From an uncultured Acidobacteriaceae bacterium (lineage in GTDB: Bacteria > Acidobacteriota > Terriglobia > Terriglobales > Acidobacteriaceae), in the NCBI GenBank assembly GCA_963749985.1, contig CAVVOS010000006.1, positions 429,590-493,589 of the forward strand: DNA of 64,000 nt, given 5' to 3'. Positions 53,645 to 64,000 of the stretch are shown here, piece by piece. Position 1 is the stretch's first letter. Every line of letters begins with the position of its first letter. The notes below the pieces were generated by a model. The model was not told where the DNA came from. It worked only from the letters and a program-made list of their open reading frames with translations, and searched no databases. The position numbers and the translations under genes are program-made.

Positions 53645-56600
53645 TTAGTGCGCCGGAGTTGGGACCGGCGGCTTGATTTGCATGGCAGGGTCGCCGAGCA
53701 GATTGTAGGTTTTGCGGACACCGAGATCGGTGATGCCCGATTTCGCTTTAAGGATCGCATCTCCGAGAGCTGGCTGAGGCGAAGACATTGCGCTTTGCAC
53801 GACTAACTTGTCGAGAAGCGTCTGCGGCGGTGCCTGATTGAGGCCGCTCGAAGATAAGACCGCGACCGCGCCTCCGTTGGGGGCGAGCATGAGCGTGACG
53901 GCCAGAGGCTCGTCGTACACGTCCTGGAAGAAACCGTTGAGGCAATCCATGATGAGGAAGACCGGCAAGGAAGATCCGTTGGTCAACGAATTTGCGGCTG
54001 TGTTGTCGAAGAGATCGTCTCCCGACCATTCCTCTTCGGAGCCGTGTCCCGCATAGTTCACCAGCAGTTGCCCGGAGTTGATAGCCGCCAGGATGTCCTG
54101 CTGGGCTTGAGGTATGGTCATGGTGCTGGCGAAAACATCCGTCACCTGCATGGCAGGGGGCAGTTGCGCCTGCACGATCTGGCTGTCTTTCGTAAAGTTT
54201 TCAGTATCGTTTACGTCCGCCACCATGAGGGCCTGCAAGGTCCAGGGACCGTTCGTGGATTGGCCTTCATAGGTGGCCACTTTGCCGGCCACGAGTTGGG
54301 CTTCGGCAACGGTGCTCACGGGGAAGCGTCCGGTTGCGATTGTGGGCAAGCCACTGTCCTTGAAGTCCGAGAACCAGTCGTCGGAGGCCGTCATGAGCAT
54401 GGTTGTGGGCACGATCTTGGTCGGCACGAAATCGAGGTGGCCGAAACCGAGGTAGTTGCGCGGGTCAAGCGAGGCGCGGCCATTGAGTAACAGGTATCGA
54501 GGCGCGGTATGCCAGACGTTGACCGCGGTCTGCAGGAAGTCGCGGATGGCGAACGGGCTGTGCTGGCCGAAAGTAAACTCATCATACAAGTCGTCGATCA
54601 GTATGACAGCGGTTGATTTGCCTTCTTTCTGGTGCGCGTGAAGTACCGGCACCAGAGCGGCCGCGAAGGCCTCAGGCGTTAGCATGACGATCTCACTGCC
54701 GGGCTGAGGGCTGTGCCATTGCGACGGGTGGTTCTGACGAACTCCCGCCGCGGCAGCGACCCGATCCGCCGCCAAAGCCAGAAGCGTGTGGCGAGCTGGG
54801 GCCGCTTGATTCGAGGTTGACCAGGGTACCTGCACCGCAAGTTCGTACTGACTTGGGTTGGAAGTAGCATCGGATGCGATCTGAGGCGTGAGCGCCACCG
54901 GCTGATCCGGGTTCGTGATATCCAACACGGCAACTGGAGCGGAAGTGAAGCCTGCAACTTTCAGTTCTTCCCCAGGGCGTCCGGTGAAAACCAAGCAGTC
55001 GGAATCCGCCACGTAGGAGTGGGGATAAGTGATCCGGATCGACTGCACCAGACTCGTATCGTATTCTCCATTTTGAGCTGTGAAGGTGACGGTGTTATCT
55101 CCCTCCTGTAATGAGCCAGCCGGGAGAGACATACGGAGCCTGCCCTTGCCTTGCCCTGTGAAGGTGATATCGCCGAGGGTCGCGCCGTTCAGCGCAACAG
55201 TGACATCATGGGGGACGGCGAGGATGATTCCTTGCAGAATCACTTCCAGCTGCGCCGGTTCCGCAGCGGCCGTGGCGAGGTGGGACACTTGCAAGACCTC
55301 ATCGACAGACGTGGTGGAGACGATCGGTCCGAAGAAATTGTTTCCGTTGGAAGTGATGAGCGCGGAGAAGTATGTGGTATGGGGCGTGAGTTCTACGGTG
55401 AAGGGGAAGCTTGCCGGAGGCTGGTTCGATCCGGTTGATGGGGGCAGTTGCTGAATTCGCGCGCCCTGCGATTCGCCCACAGCAAGCCAGTAAACTCTGG
55501 TGCCGGAATACGGAGTGTCGATGGGAGTGCCGTAGAAATTAATCGCAGCCTGAGGTCCGAAACCTCCGGGGCCAGCGGATGCGCCGGTGATTTCCATGGG
55601 CTGTTCGATGGCTTCGGCATAAAGATGGAGCAGAGCGGGGTCCACATTTGGGTTCAATCCGGCTGCGATCAGATCCGGCTGGGTCACTTGGTACCAGCCT
55701 TCTTGCTTCACGAAGATCTTCACTGCGGGATTGGCTGCCAGTTCGAATTGTTTCTGATGTTGGATGAGTGTGGGCGGCGTAGCCTGCAAAACGTTTTCGA
55801 GGGGATGGCTAGCCTCGCTAGAGGCTGAGGCAGGCTGCGCCTGATTCAGTTGATTCAACATCAATGCCGCCGCGGGAGTCGCGTCTCCGGCGGATGGCGA
55901 ACTCGTGGCAGCTTCGGCCGGCACCGGCCCATGCAGGGTGCGAGTGCCGTTGGTATCCACATCTTCGAGCCAGTACGAGCCGCCTGCGCCCGGGGACGAA
56001 TCAATCCAGGAGTAAGTCTTGGCGGAGTGTTTCGGCAAGGTTCCGCGCATCAGCAGGGCCGATCCGGCAATCAGCGAAGGATTCAGTTGGACGCGTTGGC
56101 CGTTCTGCTCACGGTAAACGTTGAATCCGAGATTGTGCGCTTCGCCGCCCGTCTTCCAGAAAAGTACAACGCGGTCGGAGCCGGTCTTGTCTTTGCTGCG
56201 CTGGGCAGCGAGAAACTGGAGGCCGATCTTCGTTGCAGCCGTAATGGTTTCAGTTTGGGTGGAGGAATTATTCGCGAGGTTCGGGTCTGTCTGGTCTGCA
56301 CTCACCGTGGCGGTATTGGAAGCCGAGCCTGGCGCTCCCGCAAGCGTGAGGATCGTGACCGTGGCCGTGGCCGCGTTCGCCATGGTTCCCAACAGGCAGG
56401 TGACAGTACCGCCCGCCTCCGAACAGGTGCCCACCGTGGTGTTTACCGAAAGATAGGTGACATCGGAGGGCAACACGTCCGTGACCGTCACATTCGTCGC
56501 GCTGGCAGGACCGTTATTGGTGACCGCGAGGCTGTAGGTGAGAGTGTCGCCGTCGGATACAGTGGGGCTTGGAGTCGCGGTCTTCACGATCGCCATGTCG

Positions 56601-59600: not shown

Positions 59601-62600
59601 GATCCATACGGGCTGATGTTGGAGACCGGAATCGTATAGCTGGCGGTGGAACCGCGAGTGAAAATGCCAGCGGAGTTCTTGCTCAGCGTCATGTCGGGAG
59701 TACATTGCGCGCCTGACTGCGTGCCCGAGGTCTGAGCGATCGATGCATTGGTGACACTGGTGCCTGCGGCACCGGGGGTTGCGCCGTAGGGCACGCCAGG
59801 AGTTTCGGTCAGGCCATTAGTCCCGCCCGTCACACTAATACTCGCCGGAGTGCCGGAAACCAGCACAACACCGCCGCCACCACCGCCGCCGGGTCCGTGA
59901 CGGTTCGCCAAAGTGAAGGGTTCGATTTCCCATGCGTTGCCGCCGTTGCCACCATTTGCTTGCAGAGTCAAGCCGCCTTCACCGCCGTTGGCGGAAAGAA
60001 CGACGATGCTGCCACCGGCTCCACCACCGCCTCCGGCATCGTTGAGGGTCCCGTTATAGGCGTTAATGCCGTTGGCGGTGAGGGTCGCGGTGCCGCTGAG
60101 CGCGTAGGTGCGAATGATGATGATGCCGCCGCCGGTCGAGCCGCCGCTGGCTTGAAAGTCTCCGTCGGAATTGTTGCGCGTACCCGCGCCGCCGCCACCA
60201 CCCAGCGCGATGCGGTTGATGGTTGCGGGAAAAGCAACGCCGCCTTCGCCGCCCACACTCAAGTTGCTGTTCCAGGAGTCGCCGCCGAAGCCTCCAGCGC
60301 CGCCATTACCACCACCGCCGCCGCCTGCATTCTGATCATTGGCTGCGGGATCTCCGTCCGTGCCACCGGCTCCGGCGTTGCCCGGCGCGCCCCGTGCCAT
60401 GCTGCCATCAGTTCCCGCGGTACCGCTGGGATAACCGGTGGTGGTGTGCAAGAAAGTTACGCCGGACTCGACCCAGGAAGGAGTGCCCGCGATTCCTTCG
60501 CCTTTCGGGGCATCATAGCCAGCCGATCCTCCCACTGCCCCGGTGTAGGTGGCCGGAGCGGGTTGCCGATAATCTGTGTTGGCGCCAGCTCCGCCGGTTA
60601 ACTGCATGCCCGCGCCGCCACGGAAGCCCTGTCCGCTGACCGATACGGTTGCGCCGTTCAGAGTGAGGGTGCTCGAAGTATCGATGGCAAGAACTCCGCC
60701 GGTGGAACCATTCCAGGCGAGTGCCATCGGTGGCGTGGTTGCATCGAAAGTGGCCGTGGTGTACTGCGGCACCACAATGACCTGGTAGGCGCTTTGTCCC
60801 TTGGTTGCAGTAGCCGCGGCAGAGTCGTAGGCAAATACCAATCCGCCGCCGAGCCCTGCTCCTGAAACCGTAACCGTTCCTCCGCCGGTGCCCACGGCCG
60901 ATTGCGCAGTAACGAACTCGTAGTCTCCCGCGCTGTTTAGCGCGGTGAAACCCTGACCGGTGTAACCGTTGCCATAAGCGACGGTGTTTGAGTCGTTAAT
61001 GCTGGCATCCTGCATCTGGATCACCAGCAGAAGATTTCCGGCAGCGATTGCAGTTCCCGCGCCGGTTGCCGCACCCACGGGAATCGAGGTCGCTCCGGCC
61101 GCCACGCTCGCCGTTCCCGGATAGTAGGTGTTTAAAACGCCGGTCACGTTGTTGTTGGGCACCGCCTGGGACACGGTCGCGCAAGCGGCTGACTGCACGG
61201 TTGCGACCGCTGTGAACACGTTGTTGCCGGTGTTCAGATCGGGTGGTGTGCCGGAATCGGTAACGGTGGCGGTGTTCGCGTATGCGCCCGAGGCAGTAGC
61301 GGTTTCCACCACCGCGACGGTGGCGGTGGCTCCGCTGGCCAGGGTGCCTATGGTGCAAGTGATCGGGCCGGTGCCGGTGCAGGTCACGCCCGCGCTCGGA
61401 GTCACCGAGACCAGCGTCATCCCCGCGGCGAGAGCGTCGGACAACGAGACGGCATTCGCCGCGGAAGTTCCATTGTTGAAGACGGTGATGTTGTAAGTGG
61501 TGTTCTGCCCCAGAAAAACCGCGCTGCCCACGGTGGTAGTAACTCCGATGTCGGCCGCTGTGGGATTGATCGAAACGGCTCCGAGCGACCAGTTGGAGGT
61601 GCCACTGAAGGTCTCAGAAATCGGCACGGCAGGTGCGCCGGTACGACTGCTGCCCGAGGCGGTCACGTCCGGCGGAGAGACTCCAAAACCGGTCGTCACG
61701 TTCCACTGCTGCACCTGCGGTCCGGGGACGGTAACGTTTTGATCTCCACCTGTAGCCAGTGTGTCCAGAACCATGCCGTTGACGACGCTCGGCACATTGA
61801 GCTGGGTGTACGCCGCGGTTGCACCATCGGCGGATACGAATGAACCGAGGGGCACAGTCTGATCGACGCCCGTGAAAGTAGTGGCGCCGGCAACAATGCC
61901 CACAGTCTGCGCGACAGGGACGTTCACGGACACGATGATCTGATTCGTTCCGGACACCGGATTCAGCAGATACCACATCTCAACCCGGCGCGTGGCTCCG
62001 GCGTCATTGTGAGCGCCGATGAAACTCAGCGGCGTCCCGTTGTAGGTCACACCTACCACTCCCGTGGTAGGCGCGTTCGCGATATTTATAGAGACACCGA
62101 CGATCAGAAGGCGATTCGCCGTGGCGGTGGTCGTATGGTTGAACGTGACAGTAACCGTGCCAGCGCCGGTGCGCTCGTTGCTATGAGAAGTGGTCGCATC
62201 CACCGCGACCTGAGCGCGCAGATACGGCGCTGCCAGCAGAACGATCAGCAGACCCAAGGCTCCGAGGAGATTTGCCGCGCCGCGCATGGGGCGCGAGGTT
62301 TTGGCGCGCGCGGGACGATGGAGTCCCGTGGCGCGCAAGAGGTTGTTGGCGACCGATTGTCCGCGCGCCGCGCCACGCAATAACATGCCGCCGACTCCTC
62401 TTAGGTTGGTTCGCACGCTTCTTCGTCCCAGCCGAACTTCTTTAGCTACGGCCACGCCCAGAATCTGCTCGCCGCGCAGCGGAGGATCGTCCTGCTGGCC
62501 GCAATCACCGCGCGTGATGAAGACGTCTCTAGCGGCATCGGCTTTCACCAGACGATGCAGTCTGAACCCGTAATCGCCCTTCACTAGAACAATGTCGCCT

Positions 62601-62794
62601 CTGCGCAGGTGCACTTCAGCGGAGGGTCTGACATAAACCATCTCGCCATCGCGAATTGCGGGAGACATGCTGGCTCCGCGCGCCTGAAAGCGTACCCGCA
62701 GTCCGTGCTTCAGGCAGTCAAGGACGAAAGATTCGAACTGATTCGATTGCGGACGGTCTTCTCTTTCAAGATCAGTGCTCACAAGGTCATTCAC
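53645..62794 (-). CDS. Giant multidomain protein: S24/S26-type peptidase-like module, signal-anchor, DUF11 repeat array, Gly-rich region, C-terminal C25 (gingipain-like) cysteine peptidase
   Basis: One uninterrupted ORF (track 53645..62869, 3074 aa). Preferred start is GTG 62794, which overlaps the upstream gene's stop (GTGAATGA). Alternatives are ATG 62827, TTG 62869, or internal ATG 62287. Domain evidence is in the sub-features below. Confidence 0.85.
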   Translation of the reverse strand: MNDLVSTDLEREDRPQSNQFESFVLDCLKHGLRVRFQARGASMSPAIRDGEMVYVRPSAEVHLRRGDIVLVKGDYGFRLHRLVKADAARDVFITRGDCGQQDDPPLRGEQILGVAVAKEVRLGRRSVRTNLRGVGGMLLRGAARGQSVANNLLRATGLHRPARAKTSRPMRGAANLLGALGLLIVLLAAPYLRAQVAVDATTSHSNERTGAGTVTVTFNHTTTATANRLLIVGVSINIANAPTTGVVGVTYNGTPLSFIGAHNDAGATRRVEMWYLLNPVSGTNQIIVSVNVPVAQTVGIVAGATTFTGVDQTVPLGSFVSADGATAAYTQLNVPSVVNGMVLDTLATGGDQNVTVPGPQVQQWNVTTGFGVSPPDVTASGSSRTGAPAVPISETFSGTSNWSLGAVSINPTAADIGVTTTVGSAVFLGQNTTYNITVFNNGTSAANAVSLSDALAAGMTLVSVTPSAGVTCTGTGPITCTIGTLASGATATVAVVETATASGAYANTATVTDSGTPPDLNTGNNVFTAVATVQSAACATVSQAVPNNNVTGVLNTYYPGTASVAAGATSIPVGAATGAGTAIAAGNLLLVIQMQDASINDSNTVAYGNGYTGQGFTALNSAGDYEFVTAQSAVGTGGGTVTVSGAGLGGGLVFAYDSAAATATKGQSAYQVIVVPQYTTATFDATTPPMALAWNGSTGGVLAIDTSSTLTLNGATVSVSGQGFRGGAGMQLTGGAGANTDYRQPAPATYTGAVGGSAGYDAPKGEGIAGTPSWVESGVTFLHTTTGYPSGTAGTDGSMARGAPGNAGAGGTDGDPAANDQNAGGGGGGNGGAGGFGGDSWNSNLSVGGEGGVAFPATINRIALGGGGGAGTRNNSDGDFQASGGSTGGGIIIIRTYALSGTATLTANGINAYNGTLNDAGGGGGAGGSIVVLSANGGEGGLTLQANGGNGGNAWEIEPFTLANRHGPGGGGGGGVVLVSGTPASISVTGGTNGLTETPGVPYGATPGAAGTSVTNASIAQTSGTQSGAQCTPDMTLSKNSAGIFTRGSTASYTIPVSNISPYGSSSGTVTVNDTLPLGLIPTSASGTGWSCSIASQTVSCVDSTVLAANSSYPSITINANVAQTAPSTVTNTATVSGGGEVNLSNDTATNVANVVSSADLSVTNAASPNPVTAGSNITYTQLVTNNGPSAADNATLVEAVPPNTTFVSVSAPAGWTCVAPPSGGTGNVVCTDLNMPGSTAATFSMVVKVNTGTANGTVITGTATVSSSVSDPNAANNTASASTVVGTTAGAELTVTNAASPNPVVAGTHITYTQVVTNTGSVAATGATFTEATPTNTTFVSIAAAAGWTCSAPPVSCSNPSVAAGSTGTFTAIYTVNAGTAGGTIITDLATVNATNQAFGSNSAVATDVVATAGQADLALSTAATPLSVFAGNDITYTQTVTNNGPAAATTATFTEAIPANTTFVSVSAPVGWSCTTTTSVICTDPSLAAGASADIIVVVNVAPSVTVATITANSSVSSATSDPNLANNSTTVNTTVATACDLAVTNSGTPSPVAAGGNITYTQVVTNNGPSNCSTVAFNEAIPANTTFSSYSGPPPGWTCTSFAAGCTNPSVAPGSISTFTVVVTVNAGTAAGTIITDTDTVTTTTRDTNQNNNSATVNIAVASATEADLSVTNSASPNPVNAGQNITYTQVVTNNGPATAGGTVVALFDQPPANTTYVSLTGPAGWTCAFNSPFYVCSIASLAAHTSATFTFVVAVSSTAAAGSTITDTDSVSAAPTVDPNPNNNTATASVIVADSADLSVTNAASPVPVIAGNNITYTQVVTNAGPSTATTASFTQNTPPNTTFQSIVNPAGWSCTTPIVGGTGSITCTDPSVAAGTASFTVVVKVNAGTAAGTAINDIATVSSATTDPNPGNNTATANDVVATATQADLITTNTAAPSSVAAGSNVTYTQSVTNNGPAAATATSFTQTTPPNTNFQSITPAAGWTCTTPAVGAAGTITCTNASMAVNATAPFTLVLQVNAGTASGTNIAETATATATNIVPNLTSNSATAMVVVANANSADMAIVKTATPSPTVSDGDTLTYSLAVTNNGPASATNVTVTDVLPSDVTYLSVNTTVGTCSEAGGTVTCLLGTMANAATATVTILTLAGAPGSASNTATVSADQTDPNLANNSSTQTETITAATKIGLQFLAAQRSKDKTGSDRVVLFWKTGGEAHNLGFNVYREQNGQRVQLNPSLIAGSALLMRGTLPKHSAKTYSWIDSSPGAGGSYWLEDVDTNGTRTLHGPVPAEAATSSPSAGDATPAAALMLNQLNQAQPASASSEASHPLENVLQATPPTLIQHQKQFELAANPAVKIFVKQEGWYQVTQPDLIAAGLNPNVDPALLHLYAEAIEQPMEITGASAGPGGFGPQAAINFYGTPIDTPYSGTRVYWLAVGESQGARIQQLPPSTGSNQPPASFPFTVELTPHTTYFSALITSNGNNFFGPIVSTTSVDEVLQVSHLATAAAEPAQLEVILQGIILAVPHDVTVALNGATLGDITFTGQGKGRLRMSLPAGSLQEGDNTVTFTAQNGEYDTSLVQSIRITYPHSYVADSDCLVFTGRPGEELKVAGFTSAPVAVLDITNPDQPVALTPQIASDATSNPSQYELAVQVPWSTSNQAAPARHTLLALAADRVAAAAGVRQNHPSQWHSPQPGSEIVMLTPEAFAAALVPVLHAHQKEGKSTAVILIDDLYDEFTFGQHSPFAIRDFLQTAVNVWHTAPRYLLLNGRASLDPRNYLGFGHLDFVPTKIVPTTMLMTASDDWFSDFKDSGLPTIATGRFPVSTVAEAQLVAGKVATYEGQSTNGPWTLQALMVADVNDTENFTKDSQIVQAQLPPAMQVTDVFASTMTIPQAQQDILAAINSGQLLVNYAGHGSEEEWSGDDLFDNTAANSLTNGSSLPVFLIMDCLNGFFQDVYDEPLAVTLMLAPNGGAVAVLSSSGLNQAPPQTLLDKLVVQSAMSSPQPALGDAILKAKSGITDLGVRKTYNLLGDPAMQIKPPVPTPAH
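53700..54700 (-). other. C25 peptidase-like domain of the giant protein
   Basis: TASDDWFSDF...ATGRFPV...LVNYAGHGSEEEWS (His codon 54044-54046) ... PVFLIMDCLNGFF (Cys codon 53942-53944): a gingipain-type His/Cys dyad in the expected order. Confidence 0.75.
56235..59715 (-). other. Array of ~9 DUF11 (conserved repeat domain) units
   Basis: Recurrent ADLSVTN.ASP.PV.AG.NITYTQ.VTNNGP..A...F......NTTF.S......W.C......C... modules, with a period of about 370-400 nt. Confidence 0.85.
59860..60640 (-). other. Glycine-rich region of the giant protein
   Basis: GQGFRGGAGMQLTGGAGANTDY...NAGGGGGGNGGAGGFGGDSW...ALGGGGGAGTRNN...DAGGGGGAGGSIVVLSANGGEGG...HGPGGGGGGGVVLVSG. Confidence 0.8.
61181..61553 (-). 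other. N-proximal single DUF11-like unit
   Basis: ADIGVTTTVGSAVFLGQNTTYNITVFNNGTSAANAVSLSDAL...TCTGTGPITCTIGTLASGATATV...DLNTGNNV. Confidence 0.7.
62210..62287 (-). other. Internal Met followed by signal-peptide/signal-anchor-like segment
   Basis: MRGAANLLGALGLLIVLLAAPYLRAQ|VAV (residues 195-220 of the track ORF). In frame with the upstream peptidase module, with no intervening stop. Confidence 0.8.
62435..62794 (-). other. S24/S26 (signal peptidase / LexA-like) peptidase module
   Basis: ARGASMSPAIRDGEMVYVRP (GxSMxP Ser motif) ... RRGDIVLV ... RLHRLVK (His where S26A/S24 enzymes carry the general-base Lys, as in SipW/Sec11-type S26B) ... ITRGDCGQQDDPPLRGEQILGVAV. Confidence 0.65.
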
Positions 62795-63734
62795 GGAAAT
62801 TGAGAACCCTCTCCACGGCGCGTTCATCCGGCTCGAAAGAATAGCGATAACAAGGAACGGAATCGGCAACTCGCTCCAGAAAACTCAAGGCGGAGTCAAT
62901 GTATTCGTGACGGTGAAATGGAACGAAGGCGCGAGCAAAAAGTTCGGCGACCACCTGGCTGCGGGTGAGGCGAGTGATCAGGTTGCCGTGGCCGTGTTCG
63001 AGAACGAAGATGCGGTGCAGCGGGGCGCGCTGCGGTAGAGCGAAACATCCCTCACCATGCCACGGAGTTCCGTACATGAAGACTTGGTTGTCGCTTTCAC
63101 GGACAATGATGCGGTCGTCGCTCAGGATTTCTACTTTGTGAAGAGAAGTCCACAGCCGCGCCGTCGTACTCTTCCCCGCCCCGGAGTGACCGACGAACAA
63201 GTTGGTCGCGCCGTCGGGGCCGACGATGCCGACACCATGTAATTCAATAGCCCGCTCTTGCGTGAGGCGGTGCATGATAAGGAGCTCGTCGAGGGGATAC
63301 TCCAGAGGAATGGCGGTGTCGCAACTCTCGAAACCTTCTCGACTTAGGAGCAACGAGGCGCGGCGGAATCGCTCATCGACCAGAAGCCGCTTATAGGAAG
63401 CACCGTCAAGACTCGCAACGCTGAAATCGAATTGAAATCCGGCACTCTTCTCGTACAAGCGCCAGACGCATCCCGAATCGAAAAGCTGGCGCTGCCGCGG
63501 CTTGGGAAGCCTATCGACCCATTTTACCTGGATGCTAATATCGCCCCTGCCGGACTCGATCCGAAACGGCTCCAGGGTTGGATCTAAATTGAGATCTGAA
63601 GCGTGGTCGCCAGCCACTTCTACCGTGACTCCACCCACATGGAAACCGGTGTAGCATGCCGCGCCAAAGGCTGGGGCACACGACACCGCAGGCGCTGAAT
63701 CGTCAACTATCGCGACCCCTAACCTAGCATTCAC
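62787..63734 (-). CDS. HPr kinase/phosphorylase C-terminal-domain-like P-loop protein (HprK-related kinase)
   Basis: ELHGVGIVGPDGATNLFVGHSGAGKSTTARLWTSLHKVEILSDDRIIV parallels the HprK/P P-loop and following DD motif. Start uncertain: GTG 63734 (8 nt after the peptide stop) or TTG 63818 (track). Confidence 0.7.
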   Translation of the reverse strand: MNARLGVAIVDDSAPAVSCAPAFGAACYTGFHVGGVTVEVAGDHASDLNLDPTLEPFRIESGRGDISIQVKWVDRLPKPRQRQLFDSGCVWRLYEKSAGFQFDFSVASLDGASYKRLLVDERFRRASLLLSREGFESCDTAIPLEYPLDELLIMHRLTQERAIELHGVGIVGPDGATNLFVGHSGAGKSTTARLWTSLHKVEILSDDRIIVRESDNQVFMYGTPWHGEGCFALPQRAPLHRIFVLEHGHGNLITRLTRSQVVAELFARAFVPFHRHEYIDSALSFLERVADSVPCYRYSFEPDERAVERVLNFRE

Positions 63735-63742
63735 GGGCGCCC

Positions 63743-63916
63743 CTATGACCCTGAGTTTGGGCAGGTTCCCAGCGGCATACAGCTGCCAACGGGACCGCCC
63801 GACCCGGAGACCTTGCAATGCCCGAGGACAGCCTCCTCGGGACGAAGACTGATCGTCGTCAGTTTCGGTGACGCATACTTTTTCTTGCCGTTGGCACGAT
63901 TCAGTTCGTGATCCAT
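63743..63916 (-). CDS. 57-aa candidate precursor peptide (YxxPxL leader motif, Gly/Ser/Cys-rich C-terminus)
   Basis: ATG 63916 with GAGGG 5 nt upstream. MDHELNRANGKKKYASPKLTTISLRPEEAVLGHCKVSGSGGPVGSCMPLGTCPNSGS*. Confidence 0.5.
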   Translation of the reverse strand: MDHELNRANGKKKYASPKLTTISLRPEEAVLGHCKVSGSGGPVGSCMPLGTCPNSGS

Positions 63917-63941
63917 TGAGCCCTCAATGCTTGCCTTACGG

Positions 63942-64000
63942 TCAGTGACCACCGCAGCTTCCGCAGCCGCCTGTGGCAGCGCTTGCGTTATTCAGAATTT
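63942..64000 (-). CDS. 3' end of a second small ORF with Gly/Cys-rich C-terminus (5' part beyond window)
   Basis: The reverse complement of 63942-63998 reads ...ILNNASAATGGCGSCGGH*. Too short for the ORF track and truncated by the window edge. Confidence 0.3.
   Translation of the reverse strand, partial: ILNNASAATGGCGSCGGH

Follow-up and report, generated by a model that had tools for sequence, protein, structure and literature searches.

At the right-hand end of a 64,000-nt stretch of DNA from an uncultured Acidobacteriaceae bacterium (GCA_963749985.1, contig CAVVOS010000006.1, positions 429,590–493,589 of the forward strand; the whole stretch is called the window here), a group of minus-strand genes probably represents a cassette, characteristic of Acidobacteriota, that makes a product resembling a peptide built by the ribosome and modified after translation (RiPP) with the help of a RiPP recognition element (RRE) and a radical S-adenosylmethionine (SAM) enzyme. 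Its components are a PqqD-family protein, a radical SAM/SPASM enzyme, a 57-aa precursor peptide, a kinase-like protein, and an S26B-like peptidase domain that is fused to, or followed by, a C25 protease. To judge from these genes and from characterized relatives of their products, the cassette product is most likely a small cross-linked peptide and is probably phosphorylated. An initial annotation of the window had taken tandem small peptides, an HprK-like kinase and an S24/S26 peptidase for a candidate RiPP-like system of non-lasso type that the window edge truncates, and had placed the remaining pathway genes past nt 64000. This observation is partly confirmed: the non-lasso RiPP-like reading, with RRE and radical SAM genes beyond the edge, is supported, and the chemistry set out below is deduced from sequence comparison.

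The part of the cassette inside the window occupies positions 62787–64000, and the giant open reading frame (ORF) that carries the peptidase domain runs further, to 53645. All of its genes lie on the minus strand and are as tightly packed as the initial annotation had stated (25 nt or less): the radical SAM gene and the precursor gene are separated by 25 nt, the precursor and kinase-like genes by 8 nt, and the kinase-like gene and the giant ORF overlap by 8 nt. The individual elements listed there were likewise seen. The precursor ORF has GAGGG 5 nt 5′ of its ATG. The kinase-like ORF starts with GTG at 63734, stops at 62789–62787 and contains the P-loop motif GHSGAGKST...SDDRIIV. The GTG at 62794 that opens the giant ORF overlaps the kinase-like stop (GTGAATGA), and its frame then contains GASMSP, LHRLV and TRGD.

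An exact-sequence look-up with the 315-aa kinase-like protein returned three public contigs, among them a 183-kb ENA contig (L001) and JBAUQY010000353.1 from assembly GCA_049580945.1 (L002). These two contigs were used as stand-ins for the sequence beyond nt 64000 because they are identical to the window (100%) over the 1301 nt compared. For the comparison of loci, a scan of one genome per species gave 587 stretches with a relative of the kinase-like protein. Locus statistics refer to the best 80 of these 587, with 79, 80, 81 or 83 close loci entering, depending on the analysis. Distant clades came from a second scan, of metagenome contigs, with a profile of family members at ~40% kinase identity; the contigs retrieved for four distant kinase representatives were too short for informative gene context.

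The order PqqD – radical SAM – peptide – kinase-like protein – S24 domain was found in all of the best 80 of the 587 loci, wherever the contig reaches; small ORF, kinase and peptidase thus co-occur in relatives, a check that the initial annotation had proposed. The distant metagenome clades have the same cassette and the same leader motif. Nearly all of the best 80 loci come from metagenome-assembled genomes (MAGs) labelled Acidobacteriota/Terriglobia, e.g., Candidatus Sulfotelmatobacter. Three loci carry other labels, two MAGs being assigned to (Candidatus) Aquilonibacter and one to Dormiibacterota (L040, L045 and L061), with kinase-like proteins 59–71% identical to that of the window, which suggests binning contamination or horizontal transfer of the cassette. 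Across loci solely the cassette genes are conserved and the flanks vary, except for a gene for a 314-aa Peripla_BP_1/4-like protein that lies divergently upstream of the PqqD gene (L002 6765–7709, minus strand) and is present in 39 of 81 loci. A similar Peripla_BP-like gene lies 3′ of the C25 gene in L092 (13681–14661). A role for this protein in sensing or in regulating the cassette is conceivable.

Both genes that the initial annotation had placed past the window edge were found directly upstream of the precursor gene on L001 and L002, one for a 131-aa PqqD-family protein and one for a 421-aa radical SAM protein. The former scored 60.5 bits against Pfam PqqD, and its top match in NCBIfam (release of June 2026, compared alongside Pfam) was lasso_PqqD_Bac with 42.8 bits against a cut-off of 80. 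The full radical SAM ORF (L002 8528–9793) scored 75.1 bits against Pfam Radical_SAM and matched SPASM weakly (16.7 bits against a cut-off of 21.5). Its Cys motifs are those of a radical SAM/SPASM maturase, with CPLECQHC (CxxxCxxC), C-x19-C (…G-x4-C) and CVQCRIQSLCGMC (Cx2Cx5Cx2C), plus a Cys-rich tail. Among curated families its full-length matches were GeoRSP, ACGX and PapB (PapB at 54 against a cut-off of 340). The N-terminal core scored well against the mycofactocin maturase and PqqE, and among PDB sequences PqqE was the best match and SkfB the second.

The last residues of this enzyme, ...ILNNASAATGGCGSCGGH, are exactly the fragment at the window edge that had been taken for the first of two tandem small peptides. 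The C-terminal extension they belong to lies past the SPASM motifs (L002 9600–9793, with its end at window 63942–64000), holds four additional Cys and resembles the Gly/Cys-rich core of the presumed substrate. Its GxCx[FY]C motif (HGxCEFC) was present in 81 of 81 loci and the terminal CxxC (GGCGSCGxH) in 79. The four Cys could bind another metal or cluster.

With that fragment assigned to the enzyme, exactly one motif-bearing peptide remains per locus, at the same position in 83 of 83 loci (79 distinct peptides). In the close loci, Tyr-19, Pro-16 and Leu/Val-14 of the 32-aa leader, which make up a YxxPxL motif, are invariant, as is the block ISLRPEEAVLG. The core, 23–31 residues long, is hypervariable; over 79 cores it contains 21% Gly, 16% Ser and 23% Ser+Thr with 0.3% Asp+Glu, and the window core has no Asp or Glu at all. 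The cores of the close peptides always start with (H/A/N/S)-C-K, their last Cys lies 5–6 residues from the core end, 77 of 79 have three Cys and all 79 end in Gly-Ser. Pooling the distant clades gave 140 hits of the precursor regular expression, a few of them spurious, with the consensus xCK-x5-GP-x4-5-C-x4-6-C-x-[STN]-x-GS. Among these, the distance from Tyr to the core is 19 in 137, three Cys are present in 135, the C-terminal Gly-Ser in 131, and Ser, Thr or Asn at position −4 in 124.

Conservation of the peptide goes far beyond chance. Among 81 loci, the block LRPEEAVLGxCK is encoded by 80 different nucleotide sequences, yet 11 of its 12 amino acid positions are invariant or nearly so (one E-to-D change; x is H, A, N or S), and codon changes in the conserved leader block are nearly all synonymous. 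This indicates that the precursor ORF is translated and under strong purifying selection, which answers the question of conservation that the initial annotation had raised for its small ORF. Read as sequence, the peptide shows the classic pattern of a RiPP precursor, in which the leader does not vary, the core diversifies and the Cys are fixed.

The kinase-like protein was harder to place by sequence. Profile searches gave HprK_rel_B at E = 9e-4, ATP-dependent phosphoenolpyruvate carboxykinase (PEPCK) at 0.014 and Hpr_kinase_C at 0.16 (11.9 bits against a Pfam cut-off of 33.3), weak matches that agree in their direction. TIGR00679 (hpr-ser) was absent from its matches at E up to 1, and TIGR04249 (ScmC) scored 11.5 bits against a cut-off of 125. 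Among 20 close family members, 18 matched PEPCK, 9 HprK_rel_B and 5 ScmC. The best values among distant members were 2.7e-9 for ScmC (36.8 bits), 1.1e-7 for HprK_rel_B and 4.2e-6 for hpr-ser, with TIGR00679 across relatives at no more than 26 bits against a cut-off of 240. Precomputed Pfam matches on family members name ScmC (PF27840). The family is large: more than 4,598 relatives, nearly all unnamed, were found in a collection of 5.8 billion proteins, and when a profile was run exhaustively against the representatives of 1.84 billion clusters (50% identity), 475 clusters matched at E<1e-30, a number that rose to 2,467 at E<1e-10.

A profile search against PDB sequences gave P-loop matches only, with HprK/P (1ko7) at E = 0.7. 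The fold was clearer. An AlphaFold2 model built from a 20-sequence alignment had a predicted local distance difference test score (pLDDT) of 54.5 and an unusable P-loop domain; redone with 114 diverse sequences, the model reached a pLDDT of 93.4 and a predicted TM score of 0.90. Foldseek matched this model to ATP-dependent PEPCKs (E ~5e-8) and to HprK/P (1knx, 1kkl; E ~3e-6) in the PDB. Kinases of lasso precursors share the residues H148-G163-G166-G168-K169-S170-D186-D187 in BsfK numbering (PMC10368454). The window protein has all eight (H166-G182-G185-G187-K188-S189-D206-D207), with spacing within ±1 of BsfK. Across the 114 aligned sequences, S189 is the consensus residue only, and each of the other seven is invariant or at least 90% conserved. 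The modelled PEPCK/HprK-like fold and the catalytic motif H...GxxGxGKS...DD together indicate that the protein is very probably an active HprK-type kinase, in line with its first description as HprK-like.

That a kinase of this type stands beside a YxxPxL leader and a PqqD protein whose best NCBIfam match is a lasso model might suggest a lasso-peptide cluster, in which HprK-type kinases do occur, or else a genuine HPr kinase/phosphorylase of the phosphotransferase system (PTS). We consider either extremely improbable. Among the called genes within 10 kb on each side on L001 and L002, Pfam revealed no lasso cyclase (Asn-synthetase-like) and no B/B2 protease. The PqqD score falls well below the lasso cut-off, and the scarcity of Asp and Glu leaves no acceptor at core positions 7–9 for a macrolactam. 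A lasso cluster was thus rejected on gene content, as the initial annotation had proposed. HprK/P proper was rejected on the TIGR00679 and Hpr_kinase_C scores, far below their cut-offs, and on the lack of PTS context, no ptsH being found among the called genes 10 kb to either side on the same two contigs. Finally, PADLOC gave just generic radical SAM (pVip) similarity, and an anti-phage defense system was set aside as a candidate.

A different reading of the kinase is that the ScmC-like protein leaves no phosphate behind. ATP would then serve to activate Ser/Thr for elimination to dehydroalanine or dehydrobutyrine, with lanthionine-type bridges to the three Cys, or the protein would be an ATP-dependent scaffold; the radical SAM enzyme would carry out some other reaction, which might resemble that of MftC at Val-Tyr and take place at the Gly-Ser of the C-terminus. 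Class III/IV lanthipeptides are made by phosphorylation followed by elimination, and a core rich in Ser and Thr with three fixed Cys, the preference for Ser, Thr or Asn at position −4, and the good scores of the radical SAM N-terminal core against the mycofactocin maturase and PqqE all fit such a route. However, the cassette contains no lyase or cyclase domain, the characterized HprK-like RiPP kinases leave a stable (poly)phosphate on Ser, and the families that the radical SAM enzyme matches over their full length act on Cys-rich peptides. We therefore regard elimination as unlikely and keep to a kinase that phosphorylates the precursor.

The S26B-like domain forms the first ~125 residues of the giant ORF, in frame and with no stop between. 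It matched Pfam Peptidase_S24 over residues 37–85 (25.9 bits against a cut-off of 23.3) and TIGR02228 at E = 1.2e-6 (28.5 bits, below the cut-off of 51.85). It aligns to SEC11C (7p2q) and SEC11A, with ASMSP opposite GSMEP, LHRLV opposite VHRVI and TRGDCGQQDD opposite TKGDNNEVDD, and its SM, HR and TRGD..D are at least 90% conserved across 79 loci. It thus has the Ser nucleophile, the His (not Lys) base and the Asp box of S26B. It departs from S26B in that no hydrophobic segment precedes it as an N-terminal membrane anchor, in that its predicted location is not extracytoplasmic, and in that the curated model stays below its cut-off. The S26B (His-type) call made in the initial annotation is supported as to the type of peptidase; that annotation missed that this is a domain of a giant C25 protein, the supposed separate peptidase gene being in frame with an ORF of 3,049 codons.

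Downstream of the S26B-like domain lies an Arg-rich linker and then a signal-like segment, MRGAANLLGALGLLIVLLAAPYLRA followed by QVAVD. A hydrophobicity scan found such a segment in 72 of 79 loci, and in 25 of them it mostly ends in xRAQV(A)VD. Given the positive-inside rule, the Arg-rich linker and the signal-like stretch suggest that the S26B-like domain is cytoplasmic and membrane-tethered and that the remainder of the giant protein is exported. To have an enzyme domain of the cytoplasm placed ahead of a signal peptide is by itself unusual. In the rest of the ORF, a conserved N-terminal domain is followed by a long Gly-rich stretch (GGGGGGNGGAGGFGG...), then by 10 DUF11 repeats and lastly by Peptidase_C25; Pfam additionally matched CARDB. 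The C25 domain (PF01364), at residues 2703–3039, scored 240.8 bits with the cut-off at 23 and has the His and Cys catalytic motifs in NYAGHGS and FLIMDCLNG. The features of the locus are collected below.

Features of the cassette inside the window, with the evidence for each assignment
Feature	Position	Strand	Evidence
Radical SAM/SPASM maturase, C-terminal tail, last 18 codons + stop, cut by the window edge	63942..64000	-	identity with L001/L002; stop 63944-63942
Precursor peptide, 57 aa	63743..63916	-	one per locus, 83/83 loci
Precursor leader, 32 aa	63916-63821	-	Y-19 xxP-16 xL-14 ... ISLRPEEAVLG
Precursor core, HCKVSGSGGPVGSCMPLGTCPNSGS	63820-63746	-	hypervariable, three Cys, ends GS
ScmC-family (PF27840) HprK/PEPCK-fold P-loop kinase-like protein, 315 aa	62787..63734	-	fold + motif
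S26B (SEC11/SipW)-type Ser-His peptidase domain, N-terminus of giant ORF	62420..62794	-	Pfam, TIGR02228, SEC11C alignment
Internal signal-peptide-like segment, MRGAANLLGALGLLIVLLAAPYLRA followed by Q, Arg-rich linker before	62213..62287	-	hydrophobicity scan
Giant ORF, 3,049 codons	53645..62794	-	ORF + Pfam
Gingipain-type Peptidase_C25 domain, residues 2703-3039, GHG + DC motifs	53678..54688	-	PF01364, 240.8 bits

The fusion is no accident: in 75 of 79 close loci the ORF with the S24 domain continues for at least 544 codons. Distant clades have both arrangements. In 12 distant loci, S24 and C25 were found in one ORF, and four others (L092, L105, L143 and L151) have a split form, in which the S24 gene stands alone with 168–299 codons from stop to stop (in L092, ~190 aa if counted from the likely Met). 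These four encode C25 as a separate protein, which in L143 lies upstream of the cassette and in the other three lies downstream. The C25 protein of L092 begins with its own signal peptide, at the point that matches the internal signal-like segment of the giant ORF. One clade, L084/L085, has no S24 domain, yet encodes a 1,391-aa C25 protein directly after the kinase. Since the two occur both fused and split, there is Rosetta-stone evidence for joint action of the peptidase domain and the C25 protein, and the latter belongs to the system no less than the enzymes do.

This persistence of the C25 neighbor raises the possibility that the whole cassette is an accessory system of a giant C25 surface protease, with the peptide serving in trans as its cognate inhibitor or pro-peptide, or else as an activator, as a ligand akin to a cofactor or as a substrate that C25 finishes, for example through extracellular cleavage after the invariant Lys of xCK. 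C25 is the most persistent neighbor in fused and split loci alike and is kept in the two loci without S24; the Lys directly after the first Cys does not vary, and clan CD peptidases of the gingipain type cleave specifically at Arg or Lys in P1. No conserved transporter or immunity gene was found in the cassette or in the flanks of the loci compared, which also fits a service role. On the other hand, a hypervariable core behind an invariant leader is the pattern of a diversifying bioactive or signaling RiPP rather than of a cofactor, a peptide made in the cytoplasm would still need an export route to an extracellular protease, and the interaction of the two is read from gene context. We hold this account to be doubtful. 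Similarly tentative is a narrower version, in which peptide and protease form a dedicated pair: the sole purpose of the radical SAM-cross-linked, phosphorylated peptide would be to control or load the secreted gingipain-like protease or to be finished by it, and the leader peptidase would travel as an N-terminal cytoplasmic passenger before the signal peptide. We know of no described precedent for a RiPP–protease partnership or for such tethering of a leader peptidase.

For the RRE-dependent radical SAM cassette that we favor, the following sequence of events can be proposed. PqqD would bind the YxxPxL leader, by analogy with the RREs of lasso pathways, and would present the precursor to the radical SAM/SPASM enzyme, which would cross-link the three core Cys. 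We believe that thioethers are the most likely linkages because the families matched over the full length (GeoRSP, ACGX, PapB) act on Cys-rich peptides and because SkfB is the second-best sequence match in the PDB after PqqE. PqqD would present the precursor to the kinase as well, which, with the leader still attached, would phosphorylate a Ser, most likely the invariant C-terminal one, by analogy with the kinases of lasso precursors; in the latter, phosphorylation of the C-terminal Ser is reported (PMC8498205), and the kinase BsfK is stimulated by the RRE (PMC10368454). The cytoplasmic, membrane-tethered S26B-like domain would then cut off the leader behind Val(−3)-Leu-Gly(−1), in keeping with the −3/−1 rule of signal peptidases. 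The secreted C25 protease would be a conserved functional partner, which might trim the peptide after the invariant Lys or might itself be regulated by the peptide.

Several points weigh against this proposal. The modification, the cleavage and the product are inferred from genes and from analogy, and function rests on remote homology, since every cassette component scores below the cut-offs of the curated NCBIfam models. BsfK phosphorylates Ser3 and not the C-terminus (PMC10368454), which makes a C-terminal site in the present precursor uncertain. Domains of the signal-peptidase type normally lie outside the membrane, whereas the one in the cassette is predicted to be cytoplasmic, and the C25 protease, rather than the S26B-like domain, could be the protease of maturation. 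Nor does the cassette have a conserved transporter that would account for export of the product.

Some distant cassettes depart from the common arrangement. In L084 (648–2130), three further genes lie before the cassette: a second PqqD gene, a 53-aa ORF and a nucleotidyltransferase gene of the NTP_transf_5 type (PF14907). The phospho-Ser of the lasso peptide pseudomycoidin receives sugars from a nucleotidyltransferase, and by this analogy the L084 arrangement hints that a phospho-Ser may be further decorated in some lineages. In L086 (5545–7867) the order is peptide – radical SAM – ScmC-like protein, with no PqqD gene within 7 kb upstream, and a peptidoglycan-binding-like protein downstream replaces S24/C25; the peptide keeps YxxPxL, SCK, three Cys and a C-terminal IGS. 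Elsewhere in the window, an Rfam match to the Acido-Lenti-1 sRNA (RF01687; 12356–12402, minus strand; 39.8 bits against a gathering score of 37) is consistent with its acidobacterial origin, and no tRNA genes were found across the 64 kb.

Acidobacteriota are among the most abundant bacteria of soil and peat, and their peptide natural products are almost unknown. The cassette is widespread in scale, with kinase relatives in at least 587 species-level genomes, and its precursor has a sharply defined signature in the RRE-binding leader, the three Cys and the C-terminal Gly-Ser. If our reading is correct, this peptide would be the first tractable substrate for the ScmC/HprK-related proteins that stand beside radical SAM/SPASM enzymes and whose function has so far been guessed, and the cassette would extend HprK-type phosphorylation of precursors beyond lasso peptides, in combination with radical SAM chemistry. 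Unusual, too, is the conserved fusion, which puts an S26B-type domain ahead of the signal peptide in a C25 protease of 3,000 residues and so links the maturation of the peptide with a major protein that is secreted or on the surface.

A literature search turned up no description of the cassette, though many subscription papers were outside its reach, and this is not proof of novelty. The nearest described relative is SynChlorMet (SCM; ScmC, ScmD, ScmE and ScmF, TIGR04248–04251), in which an HprK-like ScmC-family protein likewise adjoins a PqqD homologue and a PqqE-like radical SAM/SPASM enzyme. SCM has two radical SAM enzymes (ScmE and ScmF) and the present cassette one, and all SCM equivalog cut-offs are missed: ScmC was at 11.5 bits (relatives no higher than 36.8) against 125, ScmE at 92.8 and ScmF at 49.3 against 400, and ScmD at 20.8 against 100. 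Compared with SCM, the cassette adds an identified precursor, the S26B-like peptidase and the C25 protein. SCM itself is a bioinformatic definition only, and no paper on it turned up in the literature search.

The pathways of phosphorylated lasso peptides (paeninodin PadeK, ThcoK, SyanK, pseudomycoidin, BsfK) share with the cassette an HprK-like kinase with the same eight-residue motif and a precursor that ends in Ser, and they resemble it in an apparent discrete PqqD-type RRE and a YxxPxL-type leader. The cassette differs in lacking the lasso cyclase, the B2 protease and an Asp/Glu acceptor in the core, in having a radical SAM/SPASM enzyme instead, and in the register of YxxPxL (−19 to −14 compared to −17 to −12 in lasso precursors); the kinases are remotely related in sequence. 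In sacti- and ranthipeptide pathways (SkfB, PapB, CteB), a radical SAM enzyme with a SPASM domain also acts on a Cys-containing precursor via an RRE. There the RRE is the N-terminal domain of the radical SAM enzyme, whereas in the cassette it is a separate protein. The cassette enzyme has the additional conserved Cys-rich tail and scores far below the cut-offs of those families, and the kinase, the S26B-like peptidase and the C25 protein are further additions.

The S26B-like domain shares with signal peptidases of the endoplasmic reticulum and archaeal type (SEC11, SipW) the aligned SM(x)P, HR(L/V) and (T)xGD..DD motifs. Unlike these, it has no N-terminal anchor, would lie on the cytoplasmic side of the signal-like segment and is fused to a secreted protein. 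What sets the cassette apart among RRE-dependent radical SAM RiPP systems is its wide spread in Acidobacteriota, an HprK-type kinase outside the lasso peptides and the conserved coupling to a giant secreted C25 protease.

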